Below are positions 28,647 through 58,311 of a DNA stretch of 64,000 nucleotides, one piece after another. The stretch lies in NCBI GenBank assembly GCA_943787795.1, contig CALSNU010000002.1, positions 512,001-576,000 of the forward strand, read 5' to 3'. This DNA is from an uncultured bacterium. Its GTDB lineage: Bacteria; Planctomycetota; UBA1135; GCA-002686595. Made by a program: the position numbers and the translations under genes. Positions within the stretch are counted from its first letter, which is position 1, and each line of letters opens with the position of its first letter. The notes under the pieces are model-generated. The model was not told the origin of the DNA, searched no databases, and worked only from the letters and a program-made list of their open reading frames with translations.

Positions 28647-29642
28647 ATGGCCAAGCACAAGGCTGCCACCGAAATCACGATCGCCCAGGAAGAGCAGTCC
28701 GCATTCGCGACGCTGGTCTTCAAGTACAAGTGGCCGGCTCTCTCGGCTCTGGCTGTGGGCGCCGCTGCCGTCCTGTACACACAGAGCGCCTCGCAGGCCG
28801 CGACGGAGTCAGAGCGGGCGGTGTGGGGCCAACTGTACGAGGCCTCGACCGCGGATGATCCACAGGCTGCGCTGGAGGCGCTGACCGCCCAGGACACAGA
28901 GGGGGTCGTCGCCGCCTGGGCGTATGTGGATCTGGCCAGGACCCACCTCCAGGATTCGGAGTACGAGGCGGCCATCGCAGCCATCCAGAGCGCTCAAGCG
29001 CTCTCTCCGGCCCTCCTCAGCTCGCTCGAGTTCCCGATCGGGCCCGACGGTTCCGGCCAGTCCATCCTCGACCACCTCGAGGCCAGCGTCGCTCAGGAAG
29101 CCGCCTGGACACTGGAGCACCCGGGCATCTTCGAGAACCCCCCGCTGCCCGAAGGCTCGCCGCGCGTCGAACTCATGACCGATCTTGGGCCGATCATCCT
29201 CGGCCTTGACAGCGCCGCGGCCCCTGGCCATTCAGCGAACTTCCTCACGCTGGTGAAGGATGGCTACTACAACGGCACCCGCTTCCACCGGATCCAACCT
29301 GGCCGCTTCATCCAGGGTGGTGATCCGAACTCCAGGGACGATGACGCGAGCACCTGGGGCCTTGGGGGGCCCGAGAAGACCGTTCCCGCCGAGGAATCCG
29401 GCCTCATCCACGCGGAGGGCGTTCTCGCCGCCGCCAAGGTGTCTGGCGCGGTCAATTCCTCCGGCAGCCAGTTCTACCTGACGGCCTCCCCTCAGCATCA
29501 GTTCGACGGCAACTACGTCGTCTACGGGAGAGTGCTGGAGGGTCTGGACCTCGTGAAGGAAGTCTCCAACGGGGAGATCCGTGAGGAGAAGGCGGAGACC
29601 CCCGTTGAGCCTGTGACGATCATCAGCACCAGGATCCTCTGA
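28647..29642 (+). CDS. Membrane-anchored cyclophilin-type peptidyl-prolyl isomerase with N-terminal TPR-like region
   Basis: TM helix, helical region, then AP.HSANF..L...GYYNGTRFHR......IQGGDP, SSGSQFY, YVVYGRV.EG. Confidence 0.88.
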   Translation: MAKHKAATEITIAQEEQSAFATLVFKYKWPALSALAVGAAAVLYTQSASQAATESERAVWGQLYEASTADDPQAALEALTAQDTEGVVAAWAYVDLARTHLQDSEYEAAIAAIQSAQALSPALLSSLEFPIGPDGSGQSILDHLEASVAQEAAWTLEHPGIFENPPLPEGSPRVELMTDLGPIILGLDSAAAPGHSANFLTLVKDGYYNGTRFHRIQPGRFIQGGDPNSRDDDASTWGLGGPEKTVPAEESGLIHAEGVLAAAKVSGAVNSSGSQFYLTASPQHQFDGNYVVYGRVLEGLDLVKEVSNGEIREEKAETPVEPVTIISTRIL

Positions 29643-29665
29643 TCCGCTTTACCTGCTCCGGCCCG

Positions 29666-29709
29666 ACGAAGAAGGGGCGGTGGACCGTGGTCCACCGCCC
29701 CTTCTTCGT
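29666..29709. terminator. Long perfect hairpin downstream of the PPIase gene
   Basis: ACGAAGAAGGGGCGGTGGACC-GT-GGTCCACCGCCCCTTCTTCGT. Confidence 0.8.
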
Positions 29710-29771
29710 GCCCGGAGGCTGACGGCACCCGCGGCCGATCAGCGATCTCCCCACCTTGCCTTCAGGCTTCA

Positions 29772-29787
29772 TGTTCCACGTGGAACA
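29772..29787. promoter_or_regulatory. parS: parS site 1
   Basis: Perfect palindrome TGTTCCACGTGGAACA (canonical parS consensus) near parB. Confidence 0.95.
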
Positions 29788-29878
29788 CGGAGCTCCCGCC
29801 CGGCGCCACTCCAGCGGCACCCGGTGCTTCGATGGAGAACCAGCATGGCGCGTTCTCGTCCGACCTGGACCCCTGGAG

Positions 29879-29894
29879 TGTTCCACGTGGAACA
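29879..29894. promoter_or_regulatory. parS: parS site 2
   Basis: TGTTCCACGTGGAACA. Confidence 0.95.
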
Positions 29895-30158
29895 CGCCAA
29901 TTCGGTGCTGGGCCCATCCCTGAAAGGGACCACCCCGGAGCTGTACTCCTACGGCCTTCATAGCTCAACGGACCAGGATCCCCCGGCTCGGTCCTGGGGC
30001 TCCGATTAACGGCAGGGGTCGCTCCCCTGGAGTGATCGCTCTCCGGGCCCCGGCCAGGCGTTCACAAGCCACGACCGGCACGGTGCTCCCGCCCCGTGGG
30101 CGAGCTTGCCCGGCGGCAAAGGGGTTCGATTCGTGGGCCAGCGGAGATGGCCCATTGA

Positions 30159-30174
30159 TGTTCCACGTGGAACA
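30159..30174. promoter_or_regulatory. parS: parS site 3
   Basis: TGTTCCACGTGGAACA. Confidence 0.95.
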
Positions 30175-30420
30175 ACCGCCACGCTCACTCCACCTTCAAC
30201 CAAGCCCCAAGCGCCACCACAACCCCAAGGGCCCCGTTGCGATGGCCAGGACCACCTCGGAACCGCCGCCTGGGCCTCCCCTCAGGTCGCGCAACCTTCG
30301 CGAGCGGCTCCAACCCCGAGCCTGCCGGACCACCGACCGGCGAAGCCCGATTCATCACCAAGGGCGGCCGGGACCACGAGCGACACGACGTCAGAGCACG
30401 GACCGAAGCTCTGGAGCGGT

Positions 30421-30436
30421 TGTTCCACGTGGAACA
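30421..30436. promoter_or_regulatory. parS: parS site 4
   Basis: TGTTCCACGTGGAACA, extending to a 20-bp palindrome at 30419-30438. Confidence 0.95.
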
Positions 30437-30737
30437 ACTCACCTACGACCATGTCATTTCCAATTGTGGACAACCCACCTTCGCACTCTCCGGGTCCCCA
30501 GCCTCCGTCTCAGGCTTGGTCACTGCACCACGCACTGGAGGCGCGAGAGCAGCTATCCCGCCAGAGTCGCGCTGCGGCCACCACATCACGGAGTCCGTGG
30601 AGAACTGGTGGAGAACTACCCGCAGATCGACAAGACCCAACGCAGGCAGGCTCCGCTCCCCCCCCGACCCAGCGACCCACCCCACCCCGTCGATGGAGGA
30701 CCCCCAAGGACCACAAGGCGTTGTGGCCCTGGCAGAT

Positions 30738-33311: not shown

Positions 33312-34613
33312 TCACCTGCGCTGCCGCAGGTAGTTGAGGCTCACGGGGAGGTCCTCGAGCCCGGCCTCGCCCAGGTCAGCGGCGAACAACTGCTCGAGGT
33401 CGAGGAGGGTCCGCTCGTCCCCATGGGCGACGAAGGTCCGCTGCTCCGGGTTGGATCCGATCGCCACCATGAGCTCGAGGATCGAGCCGGCGTTGCACCT
33501 TGAACCTGCGACCTCCAGCTCGACGGGCGTGCCGTGGTGCTGGACGATCGCCACGATCAGCGACGCTGGCCTGGCATGGAGGAAGATGCCCTCCCTCAGG
33601 CAGAGTTCGACGCTGGAGACACGGGTGTAGCTCGGGAGCAGGGACGACGCGATCTCCCCGCCGCTCCGAATGAACGCCTGCGCGCTGACCAGCAGGCGGT
33701 TCAGCGTCACATCCCGGACCTGCGAGCGCGGCACCAGCCGCTGCAGGACCGAATCGGCCATGTCGGAGCGCAGACCGCGCTCGTGCCGCTCGACGAAGTG
33801 CGTCAGGTAGGTCACCGCGCCGAGGGTATGCAGCGCCGCCGAGGCGTGACCGCGGAGGTCGGGCAGGCGCGGGTCCCCGGTCTCCAACACCGTGTTCTTG
33901 ACGTACGTGTCGTAGCTCGACTGGAGGTTGTGGACGGTGGCTTCCCAGACGCGCGCCGTCTCCTCACTGCACTTGGCGCGCAGGAACTCCTCCCGGCGGT
34001 CGGCCTCGAGCATCGGCTCAATGCCCACGTCCTCGAGCATCTTGAGGGCAGAGAGGTAGCTGGTCGCGACCTTCGCGATGCGGTGGTCGTCGTCGTCAAT
34101 GCGGTCGAGGTCGACGTTGTTGGCGAGCCTCGGCGGCGCCTCCATGGCATCGTCCGGCCGCTGCCCCTGCCCCAGCTGCAGCTCGGAGACGCCGCGTTCC
34201 CTGGCCTCCTCGAGCAAGGCCCCCATCAGCAGCGCGGTGCGATCCTGCACGAAGCTGAGCGCCTCCCGCATGTGCCCGAGCACCTCCGCGCCCCCCCCAG
34301 GCAGCCGCTCGGCGACTCCGTACGAATCAACCCGGCGATCCAGGTGAGCGAGCTGCATTCCGGCAAGGGCGAATCCCCGGACCGAGGCGACGAGCTCGGT
34401 GAACGCCGAGAATGTTCGGTTGGTTCGGGCGCCGTGGTCGTCGAGGAATGACTCCAGCTCATCCGCGCTGGCCGAGACCTCGAAGAAGCGCCGCTTGGAC
34501 CAGCGCGTCCCCGAGGGCACCGCGCAGCTCGTCAGGAACCCCTCGGCGCGTTCCCGAAGGAGAACGCCGAAGTCCTGTTCAGAGACAACCGGCTTGTTGG
34601 TGGACGATCCCAT
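33312..34613 (-). CDS. Large protein with C-terminal HPr phosphocarrier domain
   Basis: C-terminal LHARPASLIV (His15 equivalent) and NAGSILELM (Ser46 equivalent); about 340 aa helical N-terminal region. Confidence 0.82.
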   Translation of the reverse strand: MGSSTNKPVVSEQDFGVLLRERAEGFLTSCAVPSGTRWSKRRFFEVSASADELESFLDDHGARTNRTFSAFTELVASVRGFALAGMQLAHLDRRVDSYGVAERLPGGGAEVLGHMREALSFVQDRTALLMGALLEEARERGVSELQLGQGQRPDDAMEAPPRLANNVDLDRIDDDDHRIAKVATSYLSALKMLEDVGIEPMLEADRREEFLRAKCSEETARVWEATVHNLQSSYDTYVKNTVLETGDPRLPDLRGHASAALHTLGAVTYLTHFVERHERGLRSDMADSVLQRLVPRSQVRDVTLNRLLVSAQAFIRSGGEIASSLLPSYTRVSSVELCLREGIFLHARPASLIVAIVQHHGTPVELEVAGSRCNAGSILELMVAIGSNPEQRTFVAHGDERTLLDLEQLFAADLGEAGLEDLPVSLNYLRQRR

Positions 34614-34772
34614 GACCCGGGCGGGAGGGTAGCACGATCTCCGTTGCGAGACCGTGTTCCAGGATCGACCTCGGGGCTCAAGACCGAGCCAACAAGAGTC
34701 CGAATCCATGGGAAGAGGGGGCCTCACGGGGCGCCCTGATCACGCATTCCCCCTGCGACACGGAGCACCACC

Positions 34773-35579
34773 ATTTCTGCCGAACGCTGTCTCGAGACCT
34801 ATCTCCATGAGATCAACGAGGTCCCCCTCCTCACCGCGGACGAGGAGAAGGTGCTCGGTGCCCGGGTCCAATCCGGTGACCTCGAAGCGCGGGAGCACCT
34901 GATCCGGGCCAACCTCCGGCTCGTGGTGTCCATCGCCAAGATGTACAACGATCGAGGTCTGAACCTCCAGGACCTCATCGCAGAGGGAAACATCGGCCTG
35001 ATGAAGGCCGCGGAGAAGTTCGACCCCGAGGCTGGCTGCCGCTTCTCGACCTACGGTACGTGGTGGATCAAGCAGTCGATCCGACGCGCGCTGACCAACA
35101 CGGTCAAGTCGGTGCGCGTCCCCGGATACATGACGGAGATGATCTCCAAGTGGAGGAACGTCGCTAACGAGCTGCGCTACATGCTCGGGCGCATGCCCAC
35201 GGTCGAGGAGGTCGCGATGGAGCTCGGAATCCCCCGCGAGTCCTGGCCCCTCCTGAAGCGCACCATCGAGTCCAACCAGGCCGGGCAGGTCTCACTGGAT
35301 GTGATGACCCAGACCCAGGACACCGTCGAGGACGAGAAGGCCGTCGACCCGGAGGAGTCCATGCTCCACCGCGACCTGCTCTCGCGGCTCGACGAGCTCC
35401 TCGGGGTGATCGACGAGCGTGAGGCGCAGATCCTGCGGCTCCGCTACGGCCTCGGGGATGGAGCCGAGCCGATGACCCTGAAGGAGATCGGGAAGGTCGT
35501 TGGCCTGACCCGTGAGCGCGTTCGCCAGATCGAACGCGAAGCCCTCCGAAAGCTCTACGACGTCATGGCTGGGGACTGA
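34773..35579 (+). CDS. RNA polymerase sigma-70 factor, RpoD/RpoS-like (group 2), probable ATT start
   Basis: Region 1.2 LETYLHEINEVPLLTADEE, region 2 ANLRLVVSIAK...DLIAEGNIGL...RFSTY.TWWIKQ, region 4 TLKEIG..VGLTRERVRQIE; lacks region 1.1. Confidence 0.9.
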   Translation: MSAERCLETYLHEINEVPLLTADEEKVLGARVQSGDLEAREHLIRANLRLVVSIAKMYNDRGLNLQDLIAEGNIGLMKAAEKFDPEAGCRFSTYGTWWIKQSIRRALTNTVKSVRVPGYMTEMISKWRNVANELRYMLGRMPTVEEVAMELGIPRESWPLLKRTIESNQAGQVSLDVMTQTQDTVEDEKAVDPEESMLHRDLLSRLDELLGVIDEREAQILRLRYGLGDGAEPMTLKEIGKVVGLTRERVRQIEREALRKLYDVMAGD

Positions 35580-35638
35580 GTCCCAACGGAAGCGACCTGT
35601 GCCCCCAGACGTGCCAGGCCGCCCCGAGGAAGTGAATC

Positions 35639-36526
35639 ATGAGCAGCAAGAAGAACGCCGACGCGCAGGACAACCGCTCAAGGTCGGATCGGGACCTCGG
35701 CCAGCGCCTGATCAGCGCCGTCGAGCGCGGCGACCTCGAGGCGATCGGAGGCCGTGACCTGCAGGAGGCCCTGGTCTCCACCGTGGATACCCGCCCCGCG
35801 ACCTCGGGTTGGACCCCCCTCATGCTGGCAGCGGCGAAGGGTGACGCCGACATCACAGGCTCCCTCCTGGAGGCCGGAGGCGACCCGGGCGAGGCCCTGC
35901 TGATCGCCTGCGCGCTCGGCCACACCAAGGTCGCCAGCAAGCTCATCGACGGCGGAGTGGACGTGGAGTTGCAGGACCGAGGCGGCCGCAACGCGCTCTC
36001 CTTCGCCGCCCAGACCGGAGATGAGGGGCTCATCGACGCGCTGCTCGCGGCCGGGTTGCCCGTCGATCTGCCCGAGCGCGAGTCCGGCATGACGGCCCTC
36101 TCACGCGCGGCCCTCGCCGGTCGGTCCGAGGCCTGCGGCGCGCTCCTCAAGGCCGGCGCCGGCATGGGCCACGTCGACCACGAGGGCTTCACTCCCCTCC
36201 TGTACGCCGCGAGCTCCGCGCACGAGTCGGTCTGCAGGGTCCTCCTCGAGGCCGGCGCCGACCCCAATGACCGATCACCTGACGGGTGCGGCGCGCTCCT
36301 CGCAGCGATCTCCGCCCGCGCCTACTTCAGCCTCGAGGGAGACGCCCACGAGGTCCGGCCCTTCGACGAGGCTCAGCTGCTCCCGATCGTGGAGCTCCTG
36401 GCCCGCTGGGGAGCGGAGGTCGAACTCGACGGCGAGGCGTGCCGTCGTGCGCGAAGCTTGGGATACGACGCCATCGCCAGGAGCCTCGCGGAGTACGCCT
36501 GCGAGCCCCTCCGAGCAGCCAGCTGA
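35639..36526 (+). CDS. Ankyrin repeat protein
   Basis: Repeated G.TPL..AA..G....LL.AGA motifs. Confidence 0.9.
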   Translation: MSSKKNADAQDNRSRSDRDLGQRLISAVERGDLEAIGGRDLQEALVSTVDTRPATSGWTPLMLAAAKGDADITGSLLEAGGDPGEALLIACALGHTKVASKLIDGGVDVELQDRGGRNALSFAAQTGDEGLIDALLAAGLPVDLPERESGMTALSRAALAGRSEACGALLKAGAGMGHVDHEGFTPLLYAASSAHESVCRVLLEAGADPNDRSPDGCGALLAAISARAYFSLEGDAHEVRPFDEAQLLPIVELLARWGAEVELDGEACRRARSLGYDAIARSLAEYACEPLRAAS

Positions 36527-39261: not shown

Positions 39262-41360
39262 ATGAATCTCTCTCGATCTCTCCTCACCACAGCAGCCTTT
39301 GCTGCGCTCGGCTCCGTCGCCAGCGCACAGCTGCAGGTCCGCTCCATCGACTTCGAGTCCGCTGACCCGGCTTCGCCTGGACCCGGGGTCAGTGACCTTG
39401 GCTTCGGGAACTTCGTGACGGTCTTTGACCCCTCCGGCGGCTACCTCTTCGGCTACGGCGTCTTCCCGCCGAACAACACCGAGGGCGAATGCGCCCTGCT
39501 CGTGTCCGGCCTCGGCACGCCGAGCAACGGCCAGTCGCTGCAGACCAACAGCAACTACAACAACACCACCGAGCACGGCAACGGCAACATCCTCGAGACG
39601 AACACGTTCTTCGAGCAGAACATCACCGCCGACAGCTTCGGGGACACCTGGACGCTTGACTTCGACTACCTGAAGGCCAACTGCGACGCCAACCCCGCGG
39701 GGACGACGACGGCCGCCTTCATCAAGGTCCTCGATCCCGCGAGCGGCTTCGCCACGGTGTACTACGACCCGATCGACACCACCGGCGCGGACTGCGTGAA
39801 CTGGACCAGCGCGAGCACCAGCGTCACGATCGACTCCGCCTGGGGCGGTCACATCCTCCAGGTCGGCTTCACCAACCGCTGCTCCAATAACGATGACTCG
39901 CGGCGCGTGTACGACAACATCGAGTGGCAGGGCCCCCCGCCCCCGCCGCCCACGATGAACGAGTACGCCCAGGACTTCGACGGCCCTGGACATCACCAAC
40001 GGCGACGCGCTCTCAAACGAGGGCTGGATCATCTTCGCCAACGTCTTCGACCCCGCCGGTGGCTACCTCTACGGCTACGGCACCTTCCCGGCGCCGAACC
40101 CCGGGATCGGCTTCTCCGCCATCACCGACACCCAGCAGGCCGCCGACCAGGGCTCCCAGAGCCTCGTGGTCTACAGCGACTACAACAACGGTGATCACGC
40201 CAACGGCAACTACATCGAGGCCTCGGTCTTCAAGGAGCAGACCGTCGAGGCGGCCAACATCGGCCAGACCGCGATCTTCTCGTTCGACGTGAAGAAGAGT
40301 GACTTCGTCGGCAACGGCCAGGGCGACGCCCAGATGTTCGCCTTCATAAAGATCCTCGACCCCTCGGCCCGGCTTCGCGACCATCCGCCAGACGCGCCTC
40401 GACGTGACCGACAACAGCATCCGCAACTGGGAGAACGCCACGCTGACGATGGCGCTCGACCCGGGCACGGAAGGCAAGATCTTCCAGATCGGCTTTGGTA
40501 GCTACGCCAGCAACTACGACGACACCGGCGTCCTCTACGACAACATCGAGCTCTCCTTCCTCGACATCGACAACTCCCCTTCGACGAATCTCTACACCGT
40601 GGTCGAAGACGGCGTCACGCTCTTCAACCCCGAGTTCGCCACGGACTCTGGTGTCGCCATGTGCACCATGCTGGGCGGCAACAACGACCTCTGGTTCGCC
40701 TACTTCGCCGAGGCCGACGCTAACATCAACTTTGACCTCTGCGGCTCTGACTTCGACACGGTCATATCCGTGTATGACGGATTCACTGGCCAAAACGTCG
40801 GCTGCAACGACGACTCCTGCGGACTCCGGAGCGCTCTCACGATCTCGGGCACCGCGGGAACTCCTTACGTCATCCAGGTGAGCGGTTGGGGTACCACCCC
40901 TGAGTTCGGCAACGGCGTGCTCACGATCTCCGAGGGTCTCGGCTCCACGATCTGCTCCGCGCAGGCCAACGAGTCCGGCGGTGGAGCAGTGATCACGGCC
41001 ACCGGTAGCCCGGTCGCCACAGACAACACGCTGACCCTCGCCGTCCGGGACCTCCCGGCCAACACGATGGGTTACTTCCTGACGTCGAGCGACGCGACGT
41101 ACCTGGCGAACCCCGGCGGTTCGGCGGGCAACCTCTGCATCGCAAGCCTCAGCATCGGTCGCTACGCGGGCGCCGTCCAGACCTCCGACGGAGCTGGCGC
41201 GGTCAGCTTCCCGGTGGACCTGACGGCCATCCCCGGCCCGACCGGCCCGTCGTCCGTGATGGCTGGTGATACGCGCTTCTTCCAGTACTGGTCGCGCGAC
41301 TCTGCCGGTGGCAACCCGACGTCGAACTTCTCGACGGCCGTGAGTATCACCTTCCAGTGA
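39262..41360 (+). CDS. Secreted multidomain protein with duplicated N-terminal domain and lineage-typical C-terminal domain; two apparent +1 frameshifts
   Basis: Signal peptide; three ORF-track pieces in successive frames join at about 39984 and 40368; internal duplication VFDPSGGYLFGYGVFP / VFDPAGGYLYGYGTFP and AFIKVLDP / AFIKILDP. Confidence 0.8.
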
Positions 41361-51680: not shown

Positions 51681-51849
51681 CAGGGGCCGCGACCCAGGTC
51701 CGCACTCGGCGTCCCCACCGCCCCGCACCGAGGTCCCGGGCCCCGCCCCCCCTGCCCCCTGCCCCGCTCGCTGTCGGGCAAGCGGGCGCCCTTCCCCCCT
51801 CACGCCGCCTGCTCGCGGCCTGCCGCAAGGCATCGTTCGCACCGCACGG

Positions 51850-53499
51850 ATGGACGACTCCACCCTTAACACCAGCTTGCCCCCTGCACGGGAGGAGCTC
51901 CCCCAACGGCCGAGCGCCCGGGTTGTCCGGACCGCCTCCCCGCGGCCGGAGCGAGCCGAAGGTTCCGGGCGAGGCCTGTTCGACGCCGAGGAGGCGCCAG
52001 CGCCCCCTGAAGCCACGGGGGCCGTGGCCGAGGGAGAGCAGGTCGAACACCTCGCCAACAGCCTCCGAGACGCCCTCGTGGCAGCCCTCGCGCCCGAGCA
52101 GTTTCAGACCTGGTTCAAGCGGTCGAAGCTCATTCGAATCGACGACGAGAGCGCGGTGATCGCCGTCCCGAACAGCTTTGCGAAGGAGTGGATCGCGAAG
52201 TACTACCTCGACGTCCTGCAGCGCGCCGTGGACTCCATCCTCGGCGCCGACCGGCAGGTGGTCCTCGTCGAGCAGCCGGAGAGCCTCGTGGTGGAGTCGG
52301 CCCCCAGGGACCGCGACGAGGCGAGCACTGGTCCGGCGGCGGCCCCTCGGGAGGGCGCCGGCGGCGGAGATGCCCGGGGGCCCGAGGCCGCGCCACTGGC
52401 GGCACCTGCGGCCCCGGCGCGTCGCGAACAGCAGCCGATTCGCCGCAGCCAACTGGACGCCGCCAGCGACTTCGTCCTGAACCCCAAGTGCACCTTCGAG
52501 AGCTTCGTCGTCGGCCCCTGCAACCGCTTCGGGCACGCCGCCTCGCTGGGCGCAGCCGAACAGCCGGGCAAGTCCTACAACCCCCTCTTCCTCCACGGCC
52601 GGGTGGGCGTGGGCAAGACGCACCTGCTCCAGGCCTTCTGCTACTCCGTCCTCGATCGGTTCCCCGACTCTCGCATCCTCTACCTGTCCTGCGAGACGTT
52701 CGTGAACCACTTCATCGACGCCCTCGAGAACGGCGACATGATGTCCTTCCGGGATAAGTACCGGAACATCGACGTGCTCGTCGTGGACGACATCCAGCTG
52801 CTCGCCAACAAGGAGCGGACCCAGGAGGAGTTCTTCCACACCTTCAACTCGCTCTACAACGCGGGCAAGCAGATCGTCCTCTCCTCGGACAGCCCGCCGA
52901 AGGACATCCCGACCCTGCAGGACCGGCTCGTCTCACGCTTCAAGTGGGGCATGGTCACCGAGATCGAGCCCCCGTGCTTCGAGACCCGCATGGCGATCGT
53001 GAAGCGCAAGGCTCGCGAGCGCGGCACCGAGCTCCCCGACGATGTCGCGCAGTTCATCTCCGAGAACATCGAAGAGAACGTCCGCGAGCTGGAGGGCGCG
53101 GTGACCCGCCTCTTCGGGTACACGCGACTGACCAACGCGAAGATCTCCGTGGACCTCGCGAGAGAGGCCCTCGCGGGCCTGATCGAGGTGCGCGCGGGCG
53201 TTCCCACCGTCGACGACATCATCTCGCTGGTCACCGAGCACTATCAGGTCAAGCTCTCCGAGCTTCAGTCCAAGAGGCGCACCAAGGCCATCGCCTTCCC
53301 CCGACAGGTCGCCATGTACCTGTCTCGAAAGGTCACGCGACACTCCCTCGAGGAGGTCGGGGGCTTCTTCGGCGGCCGAGACCACACGACGGTGCTCTAC
53401 GCCGTGGAGAAGATCGAGAAGGAGATCGCCGCCGACCGAGAGTTCTCCCGGCGCATCCAGCACTTCCTCGACCGCCTCGGGACTGGTGGGCGCTCCTGA
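51850..53499 (+). CDS. dnaA: Chromosomal replication initiator DnaA
   Basis: F.TWF domain I, LNPK.TFESFVVG, YNPLFLHG..G.GKTHL, DDIQ, TQEEFFHTFN, RLVSRF.WG, NVRELEG, RQVAMYL, GGRDHTTV; exact start uncertain. Confidence 0.97.
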   Translation: MDDSTLNTSLPPAREELPQRPSARVVRTASPRPERAEGSGRGLFDAEEAPAPPEATGAVAEGEQVEHLANSLRDALVAALAPEQFQTWFKRSKLIRIDDESAVIAVPNSFAKEWIAKYYLDVLQRAVDSILGADRQVVLVEQPESLVVESAPRDRDEASTGPAAAPREGAGGGDARGPEAAPLAAPAAPARREQQPIRRSQLDAASDFVLNPKCTFESFVVGPCNRFGHAASLGAAEQPGKSYNPLFLHGRVGVGKTHLLQAFCYSVLDRFPDSRILYLSCETFVNHFIDALENGDMMSFRDKYRNIDVLVVDDIQLLANKERTQEEFFHTFNSLYNAGKQIVLSSDSPPKDIPTLQDRLVSRFKWGMVTEIEPPCFETRMAIVKRKARERGTELPDDVAQFISENIEENVRELEGAVTRLFGYTRLTNAKISVDLAREALAGLIEVRAGVPTVDDIISLVTEHYQVKLSELQSKRRTKAIAFPRQVAMYLSRKVTRHSLEEVGGFFGGRDHTTVLYAVEKIEKEIAADREFSRRIQHFLDRLGTGGRS

Positions 53500-54224
53500 G
53501 CCCCAACCGCAGCGCTCGAGCGGCCCCGTTCCCGGGCCGCAGCCAGGCCGCCGTCAGAGCCCTTGCTCTGCCGGCGGCTTTGCTGTTCCAGGACGCCTTG
53601 CTCGCGGCGCCCGCCCCCCGCTTGGCGTTGTGGACAGCTCTGGGGAAGAGCTGTCGAAAGGACCTTGGCCGACCGTGCACCAGCGCACCTCTTGGGTGGA
53701 GTGTTGTGGGCCTCTCGGGGAACAAGTCGGTGAGCCATTGTGAGTAGGTCGGGGAGTCTGGTCGCCCGCATCTCCTCCCCCGGGGGCCCCTGTTGATAGG
53801 CGTGGACAAGCGTCCCGTTTTCCACCGCCGCCCCACCGGCTCGCCCGCACTCCCCACATCCCAACCAAGCCCATAAGCCGCCAAATCAAAATGACTTAGG
53901 TCGCCCATCGCGGCGCTTTGAACGATAGACAGGGGCCCCTATTAAGACGAAGATATCAATACAGGAGAGAGGCCTGGAAAACCTGTCCTCCCGCCTGTGA
54001 TGCGCGCCTCTTGGCCGCTCCGCATCTCCCGCACGAACCCCTGACCTGGGTCGCTGACCCTGGCGACGACAGGCGTCTGACCCTTCGGGCCGCCTGTCGT
54101 CCGAAGACTCCTCTGCCACGGACCTCGTGCAGGCACTTGCAGCGCGTCACCGGTGCGCTCCACCCCACCCCTCGCTTCTTCGTCCCGGGCCACCCCGGGG
54201 GCGCAACAAGGAACAAGATCAATC
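53500..54224. other. oriC: Replication origin oriC (dnaA-dnaN intergenic)
   Basis: 725-bp non-coding gap with DnaA-box-like 9-mers (TGTGGACAG 53629, TGGGGAAGA 53641, TGTTGATAG 53791, CGTGGACAA 53801, TTTTCCACC 53818) and a relatively AT-rich tract at 53883-53963. Confidence 0.8.
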
Positions 54225-55325
54225 ATGAAGGCCACCTGCGATCGAGACGCTCTGCGTGAGGGACTCGCCATCATCTGCGGCGTCATCCCGACCAAGAGCC
54301 CCAAGCCGATCCTCTCCAACGTCTGCCTCGTCGCGACCGACGACTTGGTCGAGCTCGTGGGCACAGACCAGGAGGTCTCGGTTCGCTTCAAGCTCGACAA
54401 GGTCGACGTCGCCGAGCCGGGCCCCGTCGTGATCCCGGCTCGGACCGCCTTCGACTTCGTCCGCGATCTCTCGGGCGAGACCGTCACGATCTCCACGGAT
54501 GAGTCTCGCTGCACCATCACAAGCGGTGAGGACTCCTGTGAGCTCGTTGTGGCCGATGTGGACGAATTCCCGGTGGTTCCCCGCTTTGACGACCAGGGTT
54601 CCGTCAGCGTCCAGGGAGGGAGCTTCTCGCGCCTTGTGGGAAGGACCGCCTTCGCAGCGGCTCGTGAGCCCGGGCGCTACGCCATGCACGGCGTGCTGAC
54701 CGAGCTCGACAACGACCAGCTGCGGCTCGTGGCCACGGACGGTCGGCGCCTCTCCATGGCATCGATCCCCGTTGAGATGGCGGGCGCGGAGAAGACCAGC
54801 GCCATCATCCCCACCAAGGGCATGCAGCTCTTCTGCCGGGTGATCCCCGACCCTCTCGACCAGATCCGTCTCTCGCTCAAGGATGGCCAGGTGGGCCTGC
54901 GCTCGAAGAACGCCGAGATCTTCGCCCGGCTGATCGACGGGGACTTCCCCCAGTACTCCGCCGTGATCCCCGCGGAGTGCGGCAACGCCATCGAGGCCGA
55001 CGCAGAGCAGTTCACGCGCAAGCTCCGGCTGGTCTCCAACGTCTCGGGTGACGAGACCCGCGCCGTTCGCTTCCGGGTGAAGGGCGAACAACTCGAGCTG
55101 TTTGGCCACTCCGCTGATCGGGGTGAGGCCACAGCTCACATGGAGGTTGCATTCAAGGGCGAGGAGGCGGAGATCGCCTTCAACGCGGATTACGTCCTCG
55201 ATGGCCTGAAGAATGGCGCTCCCGAGCGCGTGATCCTCGAGTTCGGTCAGAAGACCAGCCCGGGCAAGTTCACGCTTGGAGAGAACCACATCTACATCGT
55301 CATGCCCATCACGCTGGACGCCTGA
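54225..55325 (+). CDS. dnaN: DNA polymerase III beta sliding clamp
   Basis: PILSNV, GTD.E, G...IPA, EFP, RYAMHGV, VATDGRRL, RLIDGDFP.Y..VIP, IAFNADY, YIVMPI. Confidence 0.96.
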   Translation: MKATCDRDALREGLAIICGVIPTKSPKPILSNVCLVATDDLVELVGTDQEVSVRFKLDKVDVAEPGPVVIPARTAFDFVRDLSGETVTISTDESRCTITSGEDSCELVVADVDEFPVVPRFDDQGSVSVQGGSFSRLVGRTAFAAAREPGRYAMHGVLTELDNDQLRLVATDGRRLSMASIPVEMAGAEKTSAIIPTKGMQLFCRVIPDPLDQIRLSLKDGQVGLRSKNAEIFARLIDGDFPQYSAVIPAECGNAIEADAEQFTRKLRLVSNVSGDETRAVRFRVKGEQLELFGHSADRGEATAHMEVAFKGEEAEIAFNADYVLDGLKNGAPERVILEFGQKTSPGKFTLGENHIYIVMPITLDA

Positions 55326-55332
55326 GTCCGAG

Positions 55333-55713
55333 ATGGCTGCCGCTCGTCGCCGCCCCTCCCGGCGCCGGGGACGCTCCGGGCGACCGGGACGAACCGGCGC
55401 TGAGCCCGAACGCGGGCTACTGATGCCGCTCGGCGACGCCCTCAAAGAATACCTCGATGATTCCCGTGTCCTGCAGCGCAAGAAGGCCGGTCCGGCCCTC
55501 GCTGCCTGGGACGCGGCCGTTGGTCCGGACCTCTCCAGCCGCGCCACCGCGGTCTCGTTCCGGCGCGGCGAACTGATCATCGAAGTCGACAACTCATCCC
55601 TGCTCTCCGAGCTCCGGGGGTTCGCCTCCGAAGACCTACGAACGCGCGCGGACGCCCTCCTCGAGGGCGCCACGATTCGCAAGCTCTCCTTCAAGTTGAA
55701 ACGCCGCTCATGA
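55333..55713 (+). CDS. dciA: DUF721/DciA family protein (helicase operator)
   Basis: W...VG.......T.......G.L.IEV..S....EL motif; position between dnaN and gyrB. Confidence 0.8.
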   Translation: MAAARRRPSRRRGRSGRPGRTGAEPERGLLMPLGDALKEYLDDSRVLQRKKAGPALAAWDAAVGPDLSSRATAVSFRRGELIIEVDNSSLLSELRGFASEDLRTRADALLEGATIRKLSFKLKRRS

Positions 55714-58157
55714 GCGACATGGACCAGACCGCCGACGCCGCCAGCCCGACCTACGGCGCAGACTCGATCACCATCCTCGAGGGCCTCGAGGCCGTTCGGG
55801 TTCGTCCCGCGATGTACATCGGGGACACGGATACCCGGGGTCTCCACCACCTCATCTGGGAGGTTGTGGACAACGCGGTGGATGAGGCGCTCGCCGGTCA
55901 CGCCAGCCACTGCCGAGTCATCCTCCGGGCGGACGGCTCGGTCTCCGTCGAGGATGACGGCCGGGGCATTCCCGTGAGTATGCACCCGACCGAGGGCGTC
56001 CCCGCCGTCGAGGTCGTGCTCACCAAGCTCCACGCCGGCGGCAAGTTCGATGACCAGGCTTACAAGGTCTCCGGCGGCCTCCATGGCGTCGGCGTCTCCT
56101 GCGTCAACGCGCTCTCGACGCTGCTCACCGTTCAGGTGCACAAGGACGGCGAGGTCCACGAGATGTCGTTCGAGCGCGGCGACAAGTCCACCGACCTGGC
56201 GGTCGTCGGCACGACCGACCGCACCGGGACCACGGTGACCTGGTTCGCCGACCCGGAGATCTTCTCCACCACCGAGATCGAGTACGACGTCGTCGAGAAG
56301 CGGCTTCGGGAGACGGCCTACCTGATGGGCACGCGAGGCCTTCGGATCGAGCTCGAGGATGAGCGCACGGGCGCCTCCGAGGTCTTCGAGTATCCCGACG
56401 GACTGAAGACCTTCGTCACCCACATCAACAAGAACAAGTCGGTCCTCCACGACGGCGTCGTTCACTTCTCGAAGGCGGTTCCCTCCACCGATGACCCGGG
56501 CGCCGAGTACGAGGTAGAGCTCGCGCTCCAATACTCGGACTCCTATCAGGAGAACGTCTTCACGTTCGTCAACAACATCAATACGCACGGCGGAGGCACG
56601 CACCTCGCCGGCCTCCGCGGCGCGATCTCGAGGACCCTCGGCGCCTATGCACGCGCCGGTAAGCTGGTCAAGGAGAACCAGGACCTGCCCTCTGGCGACG
56701 ACTGGCGTGAGGGGCTCACCGCCGTGCTCTCTCTGAAGGTCCCCGACCCTCAGTTCGAGGGACAGACCAAGGACAAGCTCGGCAACCGCGAGGCCCAGGG
56801 GATCGTGGAAGCCGCGGTCAACGACCTCTTCGGGACCTACCTCGAGGAGAACCCGGGACCGGCCAAGTCGATCGTCGGCAAGGCCGTGCGGGCCAAGGAG
56901 GCGCGCGACGCAGCGCGCAAGGCGCGCGACCTCGTGCGGCGCAAGTCCGCGCTGGCCAGCGGCAACCTGCCCGGCAAGCTCGCGGACTGTCAGAGCAAGA
57001 ACCGCGACGAGACCGAGATCTACATCGTCGAGGGTGACTCGGCCGGCGGGCCGGCCAAGCAGGGCCGGGACCGGCGCTATCAGGCGATCCTCCCGATCAA
57101 GGGCAAGATCCTGAACGTCGAGAAGGCGCGCCTCGACAAGATGCTCGGGCACCAGGAGATCCAGCTGATCATCTCGGCGCTCGGCACGGGCATCGGCGCC
57201 GAGTTCGACATCGAGAAGCTGCGCTACGGCAAGATCATCATCATGACGGACGCTGATGTGGATGGCTCCCACATCCGCACGCTGCTCCTGACGTTCTTCT
57301 TCCGGCAGATGCCGGAGACCATCGAGCGGGGCCACCTCTACATCGCGCAGCCGCCTCTCTACAAGCTGACGGTGGGCAAGAAGAGCCAGTACATCGTCGA
57401 CGACCCCTCGCTCCGCAAGGCGTTGCTCGAGCGTGGTGTGGAGCAGATCACCGTCGAGGATCGTGCCGCCAAGAAGGAGTGGACCGGCGCAGAACTGAAG
57501 ATGCTCTTGGATCAACTCCAGGAGCTTCAGAACCTCGTGGACGGGGCCGTCCCGGCCTGGTCAGAGACGACGTTCACGGAGTTCCTCGAGCGCTGGGACG
57601 GGTCGAACCTGCGGCCCATTCACGCTGCGCGGGGGGCGAACGCGGAGTTCTTCAACACGAAGGAGGAGCTCGACCGTTGGCTTGAGCTCCAGGGGGTGGA
57701 CGGGGACCTGAAGGTCTATCGTGGCCCCGACAGCAACGTCCTCCGCCAGGACGCGGACGTCGTGGTGACCTTCCTCCGACAGCAGCAGGAGATCGAGGCT
57801 GTTCTCGGGTCCATCGCTGAGGGTGGCCTGCAGTTCCAGGGCGGCGGCAACTTCCTGGTCCGTACGTCGAAGGGTGCCGAGCAGGAGTGCGGGAACCTGA
57901 TGGACCTCGCGAAGGAGGTTCAGAAGGGAGCGCAGTCCGACGTGGACATCCAGCGCTACAAGGGCCTTGGTGAGATGAACCACGACCAGCTCTGGGAGTC
58001 GACCATGGACCCCACGACGCGAAGCCTCTACCAGGTGACGCTCGACGACGCCCTGGGGGCCGACGAGATCTTCACCATCCTGATGAGTGAGGGCGTCGAG
58101 GCCCGGCGCGAGTACATCGAGCAGCACGCCCTCGAGATCACCAACCTCGACGTCTGA
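55710..58157 (+). CDS. gyrB: DNA gyrase subunit B
   Basis: EGLEAVR.RP.MYIG, EVVDN, DDGRGIP, LHAGGKF, GGLHGVG, EGDSAGG, IMTDADVDGSHI, QRYKGLGEM; long insert in the TOPRIM domain. Confidence 0.97.
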   Translation: MSDMDQTADAASPTYGADSITILEGLEAVRVRPAMYIGDTDTRGLHHLIWEVVDNAVDEALAGHASHCRVILRADGSVSVEDDGRGIPVSMHPTEGVPAVEVVLTKLHAGGKFDDQAYKVSGGLHGVGVSCVNALSTLLTVQVHKDGEVHEMSFERGDKSTDLAVVGTTDRTGTTVTWFADPEIFSTTEIEYDVVEKRLRETAYLMGTRGLRIELEDERTGASEVFEYPDGLKTFVTHINKNKSVLHDGVVHFSKAVPSTDDPGAEYEVELALQYSDSYQENVFTFVNNINTHGGGTHLAGLRGAISRTLGAYARAGKLVKENQDLPSGDDWREGLTAVLSLKVPDPQFEGQTKDKLGNREAQGIVEAAVNDLFGTYLEENPGPAKSIVGKAVRAKEARDAARKARDLVRRKSALASGNLPGKLADCQSKNRDETEIYIVEGDSAGGPAKQGRDRRYQAILPIKGKILNVEKARLDKMLGHQEIQLIISALGTGIGAEFDIEKLRYGKIIIMTDADVDGSHIRTLLLTFFFRQMPETIERGHLYIAQPPLYKLTVGKKSQYIVDDPSLRKALLERGVEQITVEDRAAKKEWTGAELKMLLDQLQELQNLVDGAVPAWSETTFTEFLERWDGSNLRPIHAARGANAEFFNTKEELDRWLELQGVDGDLKVYRGPDSNVLRQDADVVVTFLRQQQEIEAVLGSIAEGGLQFQGGGNFLVRTSKGAEQECGNLMDLAKEVQKGAQSDVDIQRYKGLGEMNHDQLWESTMDPTTRSLYQVTLDDALGADEIFTILMSEGVEARREYIEQHALEITNLDV

Positions 58158-58311
58158 GGCGCGGCCCGCCCCGAGGGGCGAACGCGCCTAATTGCAAGAT
58201 TGTACGTTTGGGGTGGGTGGCTCCTGGGTCACCCCCAAACCGTTCAAGGCTCAGGCTCAAGGGGTCGATAAGCAACTCCAGTCCCGGGCCCCTCGTGGAC
58301 GGAGATCCCCC

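Follow-up and report, generated by a model that had tools for sequence, protein, structure and literature searches.

Comparison of orthologous genes indicates that a sigma-70 factor of the Planctomycetota almost certainly begins at a non-canonical ATT codon, at positions 34773-34775 of the window (the whole 64,000-nucleotide stretch of DNA that was analysed). The position of this start, its conservation, its dependence on a Shine-Dalgarno (SD) motif and the protein family are established by this comparison, i.e. at the level of sequence. As to function, we consider it fairly probable that the arrangement acts as an SD-dependent throttle on the sigma factor that is policed by IF3, like that of Streptomyces sigR. 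The sequencing runs containing the window DNA are marine.

The start region of the sigma gene

An earlier note on this DNA had reported a GGAG motif at 34762-34765, an ATT codon behind a 7-nt spacer at 34773-34775, an in-frame TGA at 34737-34739 and, as the first in-frame ATG, GTG or TTG, a GTG at 34851, all of which are present in the window sequence. Its further statement that region 1.2 lies upstream of the first canonical codon agrees with the PF00140 match: as this covers residues 7-37 counted from ATT, the GTG (codon 27) falls within region 1.2. The features of the gene and its start region are as follows.

34737..34739 (+): in-frame TGA, 12 codons above the start, at which the frame closes
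34746..34748 (+): second in-frame ATT at codon -9; no SD precedes it, and it is not conserved (AUH, i.e. AUU, AUC or AUA, at -9 in 8 of 89)
34762..34765 (+): Shine-Dalgarno GGAG, 7 nt before ATT, pairing with the 16S 3' end of the same genome
34773..34775 (+): ATT, putative start codon from orthologue comparison
34773..35579 (+): sigma-70 gene, 268 aa, with regions 1.2, 2, 3 and 4 and no region 1.1 (group-2-like)
34791..34883 (+): region 1.2 (PF00140, residues 7-37, 45.7 bits, cut-off 22)
34851..34853 (+): GTG, first canonical in-frame codon, an internal Val, with GTG at this codon shared by just 8 of 89 class orthologues
34899..35096 (+): region 2 (PF04542, residues 43-108, 67.7 bits, cut-off 24)
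35142..35360 (+): region 3 (PF04539, residues 124-196)
35400..35558 (+): region 4 (PF04545, residues 210-262, 72.3 bits, cut-off 24.1)

Because the TGA closes the frame, neither an upstream canonical start nor a longer isoform is available, and the open frame (34740-35579, +) translates SRIPPATRSTT-ISAERCLETYLHEINEV... The second ATT, missing from the earlier note, lies where the nearest NCBI protein (P0002) apparently begins. The site at 34773 combines a near-cognate codon with GGAG at proper spacing (7 nt), as is characteristic of SD-led non-canonical starts, and GGAG with a spacer of 6-9 was found in 65 of 89 class orthologues. The SD and start neighbourhood is on average half unpaired, and no conserved leader structure was detected among 12 sequences (-2.9 kcal/mol; none of the 10 pairs covaries). 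Within 34500-35800, no sigma-70 promoter or terminator consensus was found. At the bases corresponding to 34770-34772, the position directly before AUH (-1) is C in 87 of the 97 loci and the one before it (-2) in 78, these loci being kin and not independent; before the SD-led ATG starts of this genome C occurs in approximately 45%.

Identity and distribution of the sigma factor

PF04542, PF04545 and TIGR02937 (123.8 vs 42.9) all score above their curated cut-offs and place the protein in the sigma-70 family. The earlier description as an RpoS-like sigma-70 is thus right about sigma-70 but not about RpoS (TIGR02394 251.2 vs 378.7; NF004207 239.9 vs 394), and a reading as a factor that is switched on in stationary phase is unsupported here. 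The cyanobacterial and actinobacterial group-2 models likewise score the protein below their curated cut-offs. The primary factor RpoD (group 1) was considered and rejected, as TIGR02393 reaches 224.8 vs 354 and 268 aa is too short to accommodate region 1.1; the same genome encodes a full-length RpoD elsewhere (G000:C1:1413886-1415778). Group-2 sigma-70 factors are non-essential, act in stress or stationary phase and possess regions 1.2-4 without 1.1; this domain layout is found here, beside a primary sigma. RpoS, cyanobacterial SigB-E and actinobacterial SigB share the layout and also have a full-length RpoD alongside, whereas the planctomycete sigma forms a clade of its own and falls under every curated cut-off for those families.

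Orthologue-level matches were obtained in 117 of 121 class genomes (E 1e-66) and in 124 of 151 phylum genomes (E 1e-58). In a FastTree phylogeny, the 196 planctomycete rows formed one clade (SH 99) apart from RpoD/SigA (9 outgroup rows). By its domains and phylogeny, the protein is a phylum-wide, group-2-like sigma-70 of Planctomycetota, non-housekeeping and present beside a normal RpoD. Its range is stated here within the phylum, a scan of named genomes having been dominated by generic RpoD/SigA, with five planctomycete loci among 80; a search of phages gave only matches below 60% identity. Some genomes hold second copies (L386-L392), which start mostly at ATG, although L386 keeps ATC with an SD.

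Among solved structures, the best matches are SigA of Bacillota (207 bits) followed by RpoS (192). Regions 2.4-3.0 read SIRRALTNTVKSVRVPGYM in the planctomycete sigma vs AITRAIADQARTIRIPVHM in SigA, and these residue differences suggest that other promoters are recognized. In Tuwongella, 'SigA_1 and SigA_2' have been detected and may include this sigma (PMC8567305, accessible text), and the accessible text of PMC2754498 contains nothing identifiable on it.

Conservation of the start codon

The 5' ends were read in 224 genomes (109 of the same class and 115 of other classes), with starts assigned by position-based rules; roughly 25 more matching class genomes were left out by a choice blind to the start, and four duplicate loci and seven second copies are uncounted. 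At the aligned codon, the class genomes carry ATT (63), ATC (18) or ATA (2), making 83 of 109, and the remaining 26 have ATG, GTG or TTG there or one codon to either side (-1 or +1). The near-cognate start was therefore either kept or swapped for a canonical one within a single codon in 109 of 109. Outside the class, 33 of the 115 genomes have AUH at codon 0; in a few of these (L108, L116 and L144) a canonical codon is available close by as well. Overall, the AUH start was seen in at least 31 families. In 54 of the 224 genomes, the interval from the in-frame stop above the start down to codon +5 contains no canonical codon; among the first 191 this applied to 49 loci in 22 families. Other near-cognate codons prevail in some families, namely CTG in f61 (3 of 4) and ACG in f63 (3 of 3) and f40 (5 of 6). 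As a match of roughly 820 aa to hydrazine synthase alpha was present in the five f40 genomes tested, this family is probably anammox. The probable anammox loci L171, L172, L177, L182 and L379 show an apparent ACG start preceded by GGAG(G) or by an SD of lower strength.

The aligned proteins change character at the proposed start. Codons -10 to -1 are unconserved (commonest residue in at most 29 of 89 class orthologues), while codon 0 is Ile in 65, codon +6 Leu in 88 and codon +9 Tyr in all 89. In f1, the family of this genus, ATT occupies codon 0 in 38 of 43 orthologues, compared with 52 of the 623 Ile codons inside these genes, and ATT accounts for 2,582 of 44,888 Ile codons in the coding ORFs of this genome; at codon 0 alone is ATT preferred over the usual ATC. 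Codon +3 in f1 is GAA in 42 of 43 vs 178 of 1,026 Glu codons in the gene body, and the A/T tilt after the sigma start resembles that at the ATG starts of this genome. The orthologue alignment that the earlier note had proposed as a check thus lends strong support to initiation at ATT.

A start elsewhere, be it the ATT at -9, a distant upstream ATG or GTG, the GTG at 34851 or frameshift entry from an upstream ORF, would agree with the databases, where 103 of the best 120 hits begin upstream and 8 downstream, and with the other-frame canonical starts found at most 150 nt upstream in 55 and 48 of 97 AUH loci. The upstream extensions, however, are unrelated to one another, in-frame stops lie as near as two codons above the start (before ATC in L068 and L070), just 8 of 89 orthologues repeat the GTG at codon +26, and region 1.2 is conserved. 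Nor was there a conserved slippery site, uORF stop position or leader structure, and we regard a start at any of these places as highly improbable. The expectation that automated annotation would truncate the gene holds for the 8 hits that lack the start of region 1.2. It fails for the 103 hits that are instead spuriously extended before the invariant Ile (102 by script, P0082 by eye); a further 8 have Met at the aligned codon and one is extended before Met. With 8 of the best 120 starting at the aligned codon, the present assignment corrects the N-terminal ends of most records of this family.

In a metagenome bin (4.7 Mb, 84.9% complete), a sequencing or assembly error at 34773-34775 might also be considered, as might RNA editing to AUG. 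ATT was, however, found in 28 of the first 30 orthologues, and public contigs (not raw reads) of two DNA runs, X5, which may be the source of the window DNA, and X6, and of two RNA-library runs, X15 and X16, cover the codon with no listed difference or indel; the RNA-library contigs carry no information on level, strand or start site. An ATG at 34773 in contigs or close orthologues, or an indel joining region 1.2 to an upstream canonical start, had been named beforehand as observations that would speak against ATT; both were looked for and neither was found. By conservation across the aligned genes, sequencing error at ATT is refuted, and error or editing is left with virtually no probability. 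As AUH is kept across genomes and, in 54 of the 224, an in-frame stop leaves no canonical start ahead of region 1.2, ATT is almost certainly the true start.

The phylogeny implies no fewer than 23 switches of start state. In f10, ATG with an SD was found in 12 of 12, and of the five named planctomycete loci, four (Gemmata, Pirellulales, Planctomycetaceae, Mariniblastus) use an ATG or TTG that lies 9-11 codons further up, so that the weak start is not universal; that it is dispensable in many lineages counts against its being a brake.

Link between start codon and Shine-Dalgarno motif

SD strength was compared across the 173 genomes in which a start could be assigned close to codon 0. At a cut-off of -4 kcal/mol or stronger, an SD was present at 117 of 120 AUH, 10 of 13 GTG/TTG and 23 of 40 ATG starts. 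In 12 independent pairs the trend ran one way, at 5.8 vs 0.2 (cut-off -4), 5.7 vs 0.8 (-5.5) and 7.8 vs 0.0 (-7), with median p of 0.06, 0.125 and 0.008, respectively, a result that depends on the threshold and on the FastTree tree only. The pattern fits a low output that has been kept, either by a weak codon with an SD or by ATG without one, and it fits plain relaxation too.

Near-cognate starts elsewhere in the genome

A second gene, rsfS (PF02410; G000:C1:534808-535191, -; L307:808-1191), starts at ATC behind GGAG; it was the one further solid case to emerge from screening the genome for such starts. Its orthologues have ATC or ATA behind GGAG in 26 of 30 loci, with ATG at the same codon in one, and across the phylum AUH is found in 10 of 30 loci. 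Starts of infC were read by eye in 31 loci. In this genus infC begins with TTG (here at G000:C1:1328558-1329202, +, locus L306), elsewhere in f1 with GTG, TTG or ATG, in f2, f4, f5 and f8 with ATT or ATC, in f9 probably with AUH, in f3 and f7 with TTG and in f10 with ATG. Given the TTG in this genus, the usual AUH autoregulation is seemingly lost in f1 and kept in f2, f4, f5 and f8. The start states of sigma and infC do not track each other, ATT being combined with TTG here and TTG/GTG with ATC in f2. IF3 itself is complete, with two domains and close to solved IF3 chains; it carries a charged C-terminal tail of roughly 30 aa.

The ATC of rsfS and the loss of the infC AUH start in f1 could mean that start selection is relaxed throughout the lineage, by a weak IF3 or an unusual initiator tRNA, and that the ATT of sigma is one of many unremarkable cases. 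Two screens of the approximately 3,085 coding ORFs of this genome argue otherwise. The first, in 340 ORFs without a nearby canonical start, showed no excess of AUH behind an SD (ATT 7 vs 3.6 expected, ATC 14 vs 14.7), and neither did the second (ATT 6 of 62, ATC 22 of 424, vs about 7% for control codons), the sensitivity of which was limited, as it missed the sigma gene itself. Moreover, hflX starts at ATG, the genome has one ordinary tRNA-fMet(CAT), and no unusual initiator tRNA appeared among 46 ARAGORN hits in this incomplete genome, where one Met/Ile2 tRNA is missing. Lineage-wide relaxation is accordingly very unlikely. Additional candidates with SD and ATC, CTG or ATT emerged from the screens at G000 C1:836463 (-), C2:428123 (-) and C1:1194976 (+).

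Neighbouring genes

33312..34613 (-): divergent neighbour, 433-aa helical protein with C-terminal HPr domain, beside sigma in 80 loci of 11 families
35639..36526 (+): ankyrin-repeat gene, downstream

The divergent neighbour is modelled as two helical bundles plus an HPr domain with intact HARPA motif (pLDDT 90), and look-alike clusters of it also occur in Thermodesulfobacteriota. A fold search with the whole model returned HPr and generic four-helix bundles, with no specific match to an anti-sigma factor, and a predicted complex with sigma (score 0.00, mark 0.32) says nothing either way. AUH starts of sigma are also found where the HPr-domain gene was not seen adjacent, and no conserved anti-sigma was seen among the downstream neighbour clusters. 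The ankyrin-repeat gene probably lies outside the system, as it is a neighbour in only 7 loci. What we take to be a ribosomal-protein-S1-like gene precedes sigma in Planctomycetia-like and f40 genomes (L226, L151, f13 and f40 loci), and a presumably apt-like gene follows it in 31 loci of 19 families.

Elsewhere in the window, a long intergenic stretch by parB (29640-30500) contains repeated GTTCCACGTGGAAC-like palindromes, with 'FHVEH/VPRGT' in ORF translations; we assume these palindromes to be parS sites. Genes resembling dnaA, dnaN and gyrB lie at about 51700-58200. The gene of a secreted-looking protein at 39262-41360 apparently falls into two frames (39262-40194 and 40404-41360), for which frameshifts introduced during assembly may be responsible.

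Possible control of sigma output

In the proposed mechanism, GGAG would position the ribosome, and initiation at AUU would use ordinary fMet-tRNA to give Met-Ser-Ala-Glu-Arg..., i.e. (M)SAERCLETYLHEINEVPLLTADEEK, with region 1.2 intact. The near-cognate codon would most likely be a brake, as IF3 would reject most such initiation complexes; little sigma would then be made, and it would compete weakly with RpoD for core polymerase. Selection would retain a near-cognate codon rather than a particular one, with ATT, ATC and ATA interchanging and ACG, CTG, TTG or GTG taking over in some families. Sigma output would probably also shift with the ratio of IF3 to ribosomes or with nutrient state. The low yield, the discrimination by IF3, any conditional switch and the regulon are our inference.

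The accessible parts of the literature give a range for such starts. In E. coli, AUA, AUC, AUU and CUG yield 1-2% of AUG (10.1101/063800), while AUH starts reach about 10% in S. aureus and ccpN up to 30% in rich medium (PMC13009471). Sensitivity to added IF3 was greatest for an AUU mRNA, and non-AUG starts are lowered by ppGpp and when nutrients are limiting (PMC5499595). IF3 scrutiny is loosened by defects in ribosome assembly (PMC6868393). By analogy, starvation could lower sigma and defective ribosomes could raise it. In Listeria, ATA and ATT mutations in rsbW alter the balance of sigma and anti-sigma (PMC13068326). Feeney et al., as far as the accessible text goes, were unable to show derepression of sigR under stress (PMC5472188). 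Furthermore, AUU need not imply scarcity, since the AUU-initiated infC is still well expressed (PMC5499595).

Perhaps the ATT is a start that merely fixes sigma at a low level, for which any weak site would suffice and by which nothing is sensed. TTG, GTG, CTG, ACG and ATG without an SD stand in for AUH in various lineages, and the sigma start is unlinked to that of infC. As IF3 treats both TTG and GTG as canonical codons (PMC5499595, accessible text), f2 would also escape IF3, again as expected of a fixed level. On the other hand, AUH prevails over TTG and GTG in 83 of 109 class genomes though one base change would give ATG, and rsfS, a ribosome regulator, also starts at ATC; a fixed level thus seems a possible but minority explanation next to the IF3-policed throttle. 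A wider role of IF3 is conceivable though doubtful: near-cognate starts on both sigma and RsfS would let IF3 status jointly set a global programme of transcription and ribosome silencing. As part of the same doubtful claim, this circuit would be old within Planctomycetota, reaching from the marine lineage to probable anammox (ACG in 5 of 6), lost in cultured Planctomycetia, and would outlast the AUU autoregulation of infC in f1.

Near-cognate starts in distant relatives would point to a brake on sigma amount that has long been kept, and flag an unstudied, near-universal planctomycete sigma as a dose-sensitive regulator. The series of ATT, ATC, ATA, ACG, CTG, TTG, GTG and ATG at one aligned position also offers a ready test between a fixed damper and an IF3-dependent sensor.

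Comparison with known systems

Natural non-canonical starts in bacteria amount to a handful in the literature found, as far as its accessible text goes, and one of them belongs to a sigma factor, sigR, in a single genus. Among the accessible papers searched, which exclude most subscription journals, none on the start codon of the planctomycete sigma family was found; more sigma factors of this kind might be listed in the genome table of PMC5472188 or among the start sites tabulated in PMC13009471.

The AUU, AUC and AUA starts of infC and the AUU of E. coli pcnB are SD-led, and AUH is interchangeable between lineages, as in the planctomycete sigma (10.1101/063800, PMC5499595, PMC5472188; accessible parts). 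While infC forms a direct autoregulatory loop, the target here is a transcription factor, and infC itself is on TTG in this genus. The AUA start of ccpN in S. aureus and B. subtilis, as described in the accessible text of PMC13009471, is closer in that a transcription regulator carries a conserved AUH behind a strong SD, with medium-dependent output. CcpN, however, is a repressor of Bacillota with extended SD motifs, whereas plain GGAG suffices in the planctomycete sigma.

The nearest parallel remains sigR of Streptomyces, where a GTC start, subject to repression by IF3, ensures an excess of the anti-sigma factor (PMC5472188, accessible part). Both genes have a conserved non-canonical start behind an SD and both are mis-annotated, the codon of sigR varying between GTC and GTT. 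In contrast to the planctomycete sigma, sigR encodes a group-4 ECF factor with a co-transcribed anti-sigma in one genus (GTC in 32 of 34). The planctomycete gene, in turn, encodes a region-1.2-bearing sigma-70 with AUH in at least 31 families across the phylum and no known anti-sigma. By its sequence features it resembles the sigR design without being a member of the SigR/RsrA family, and extends a design of this type to a different class of sigma factor and to the depth of a phylum.
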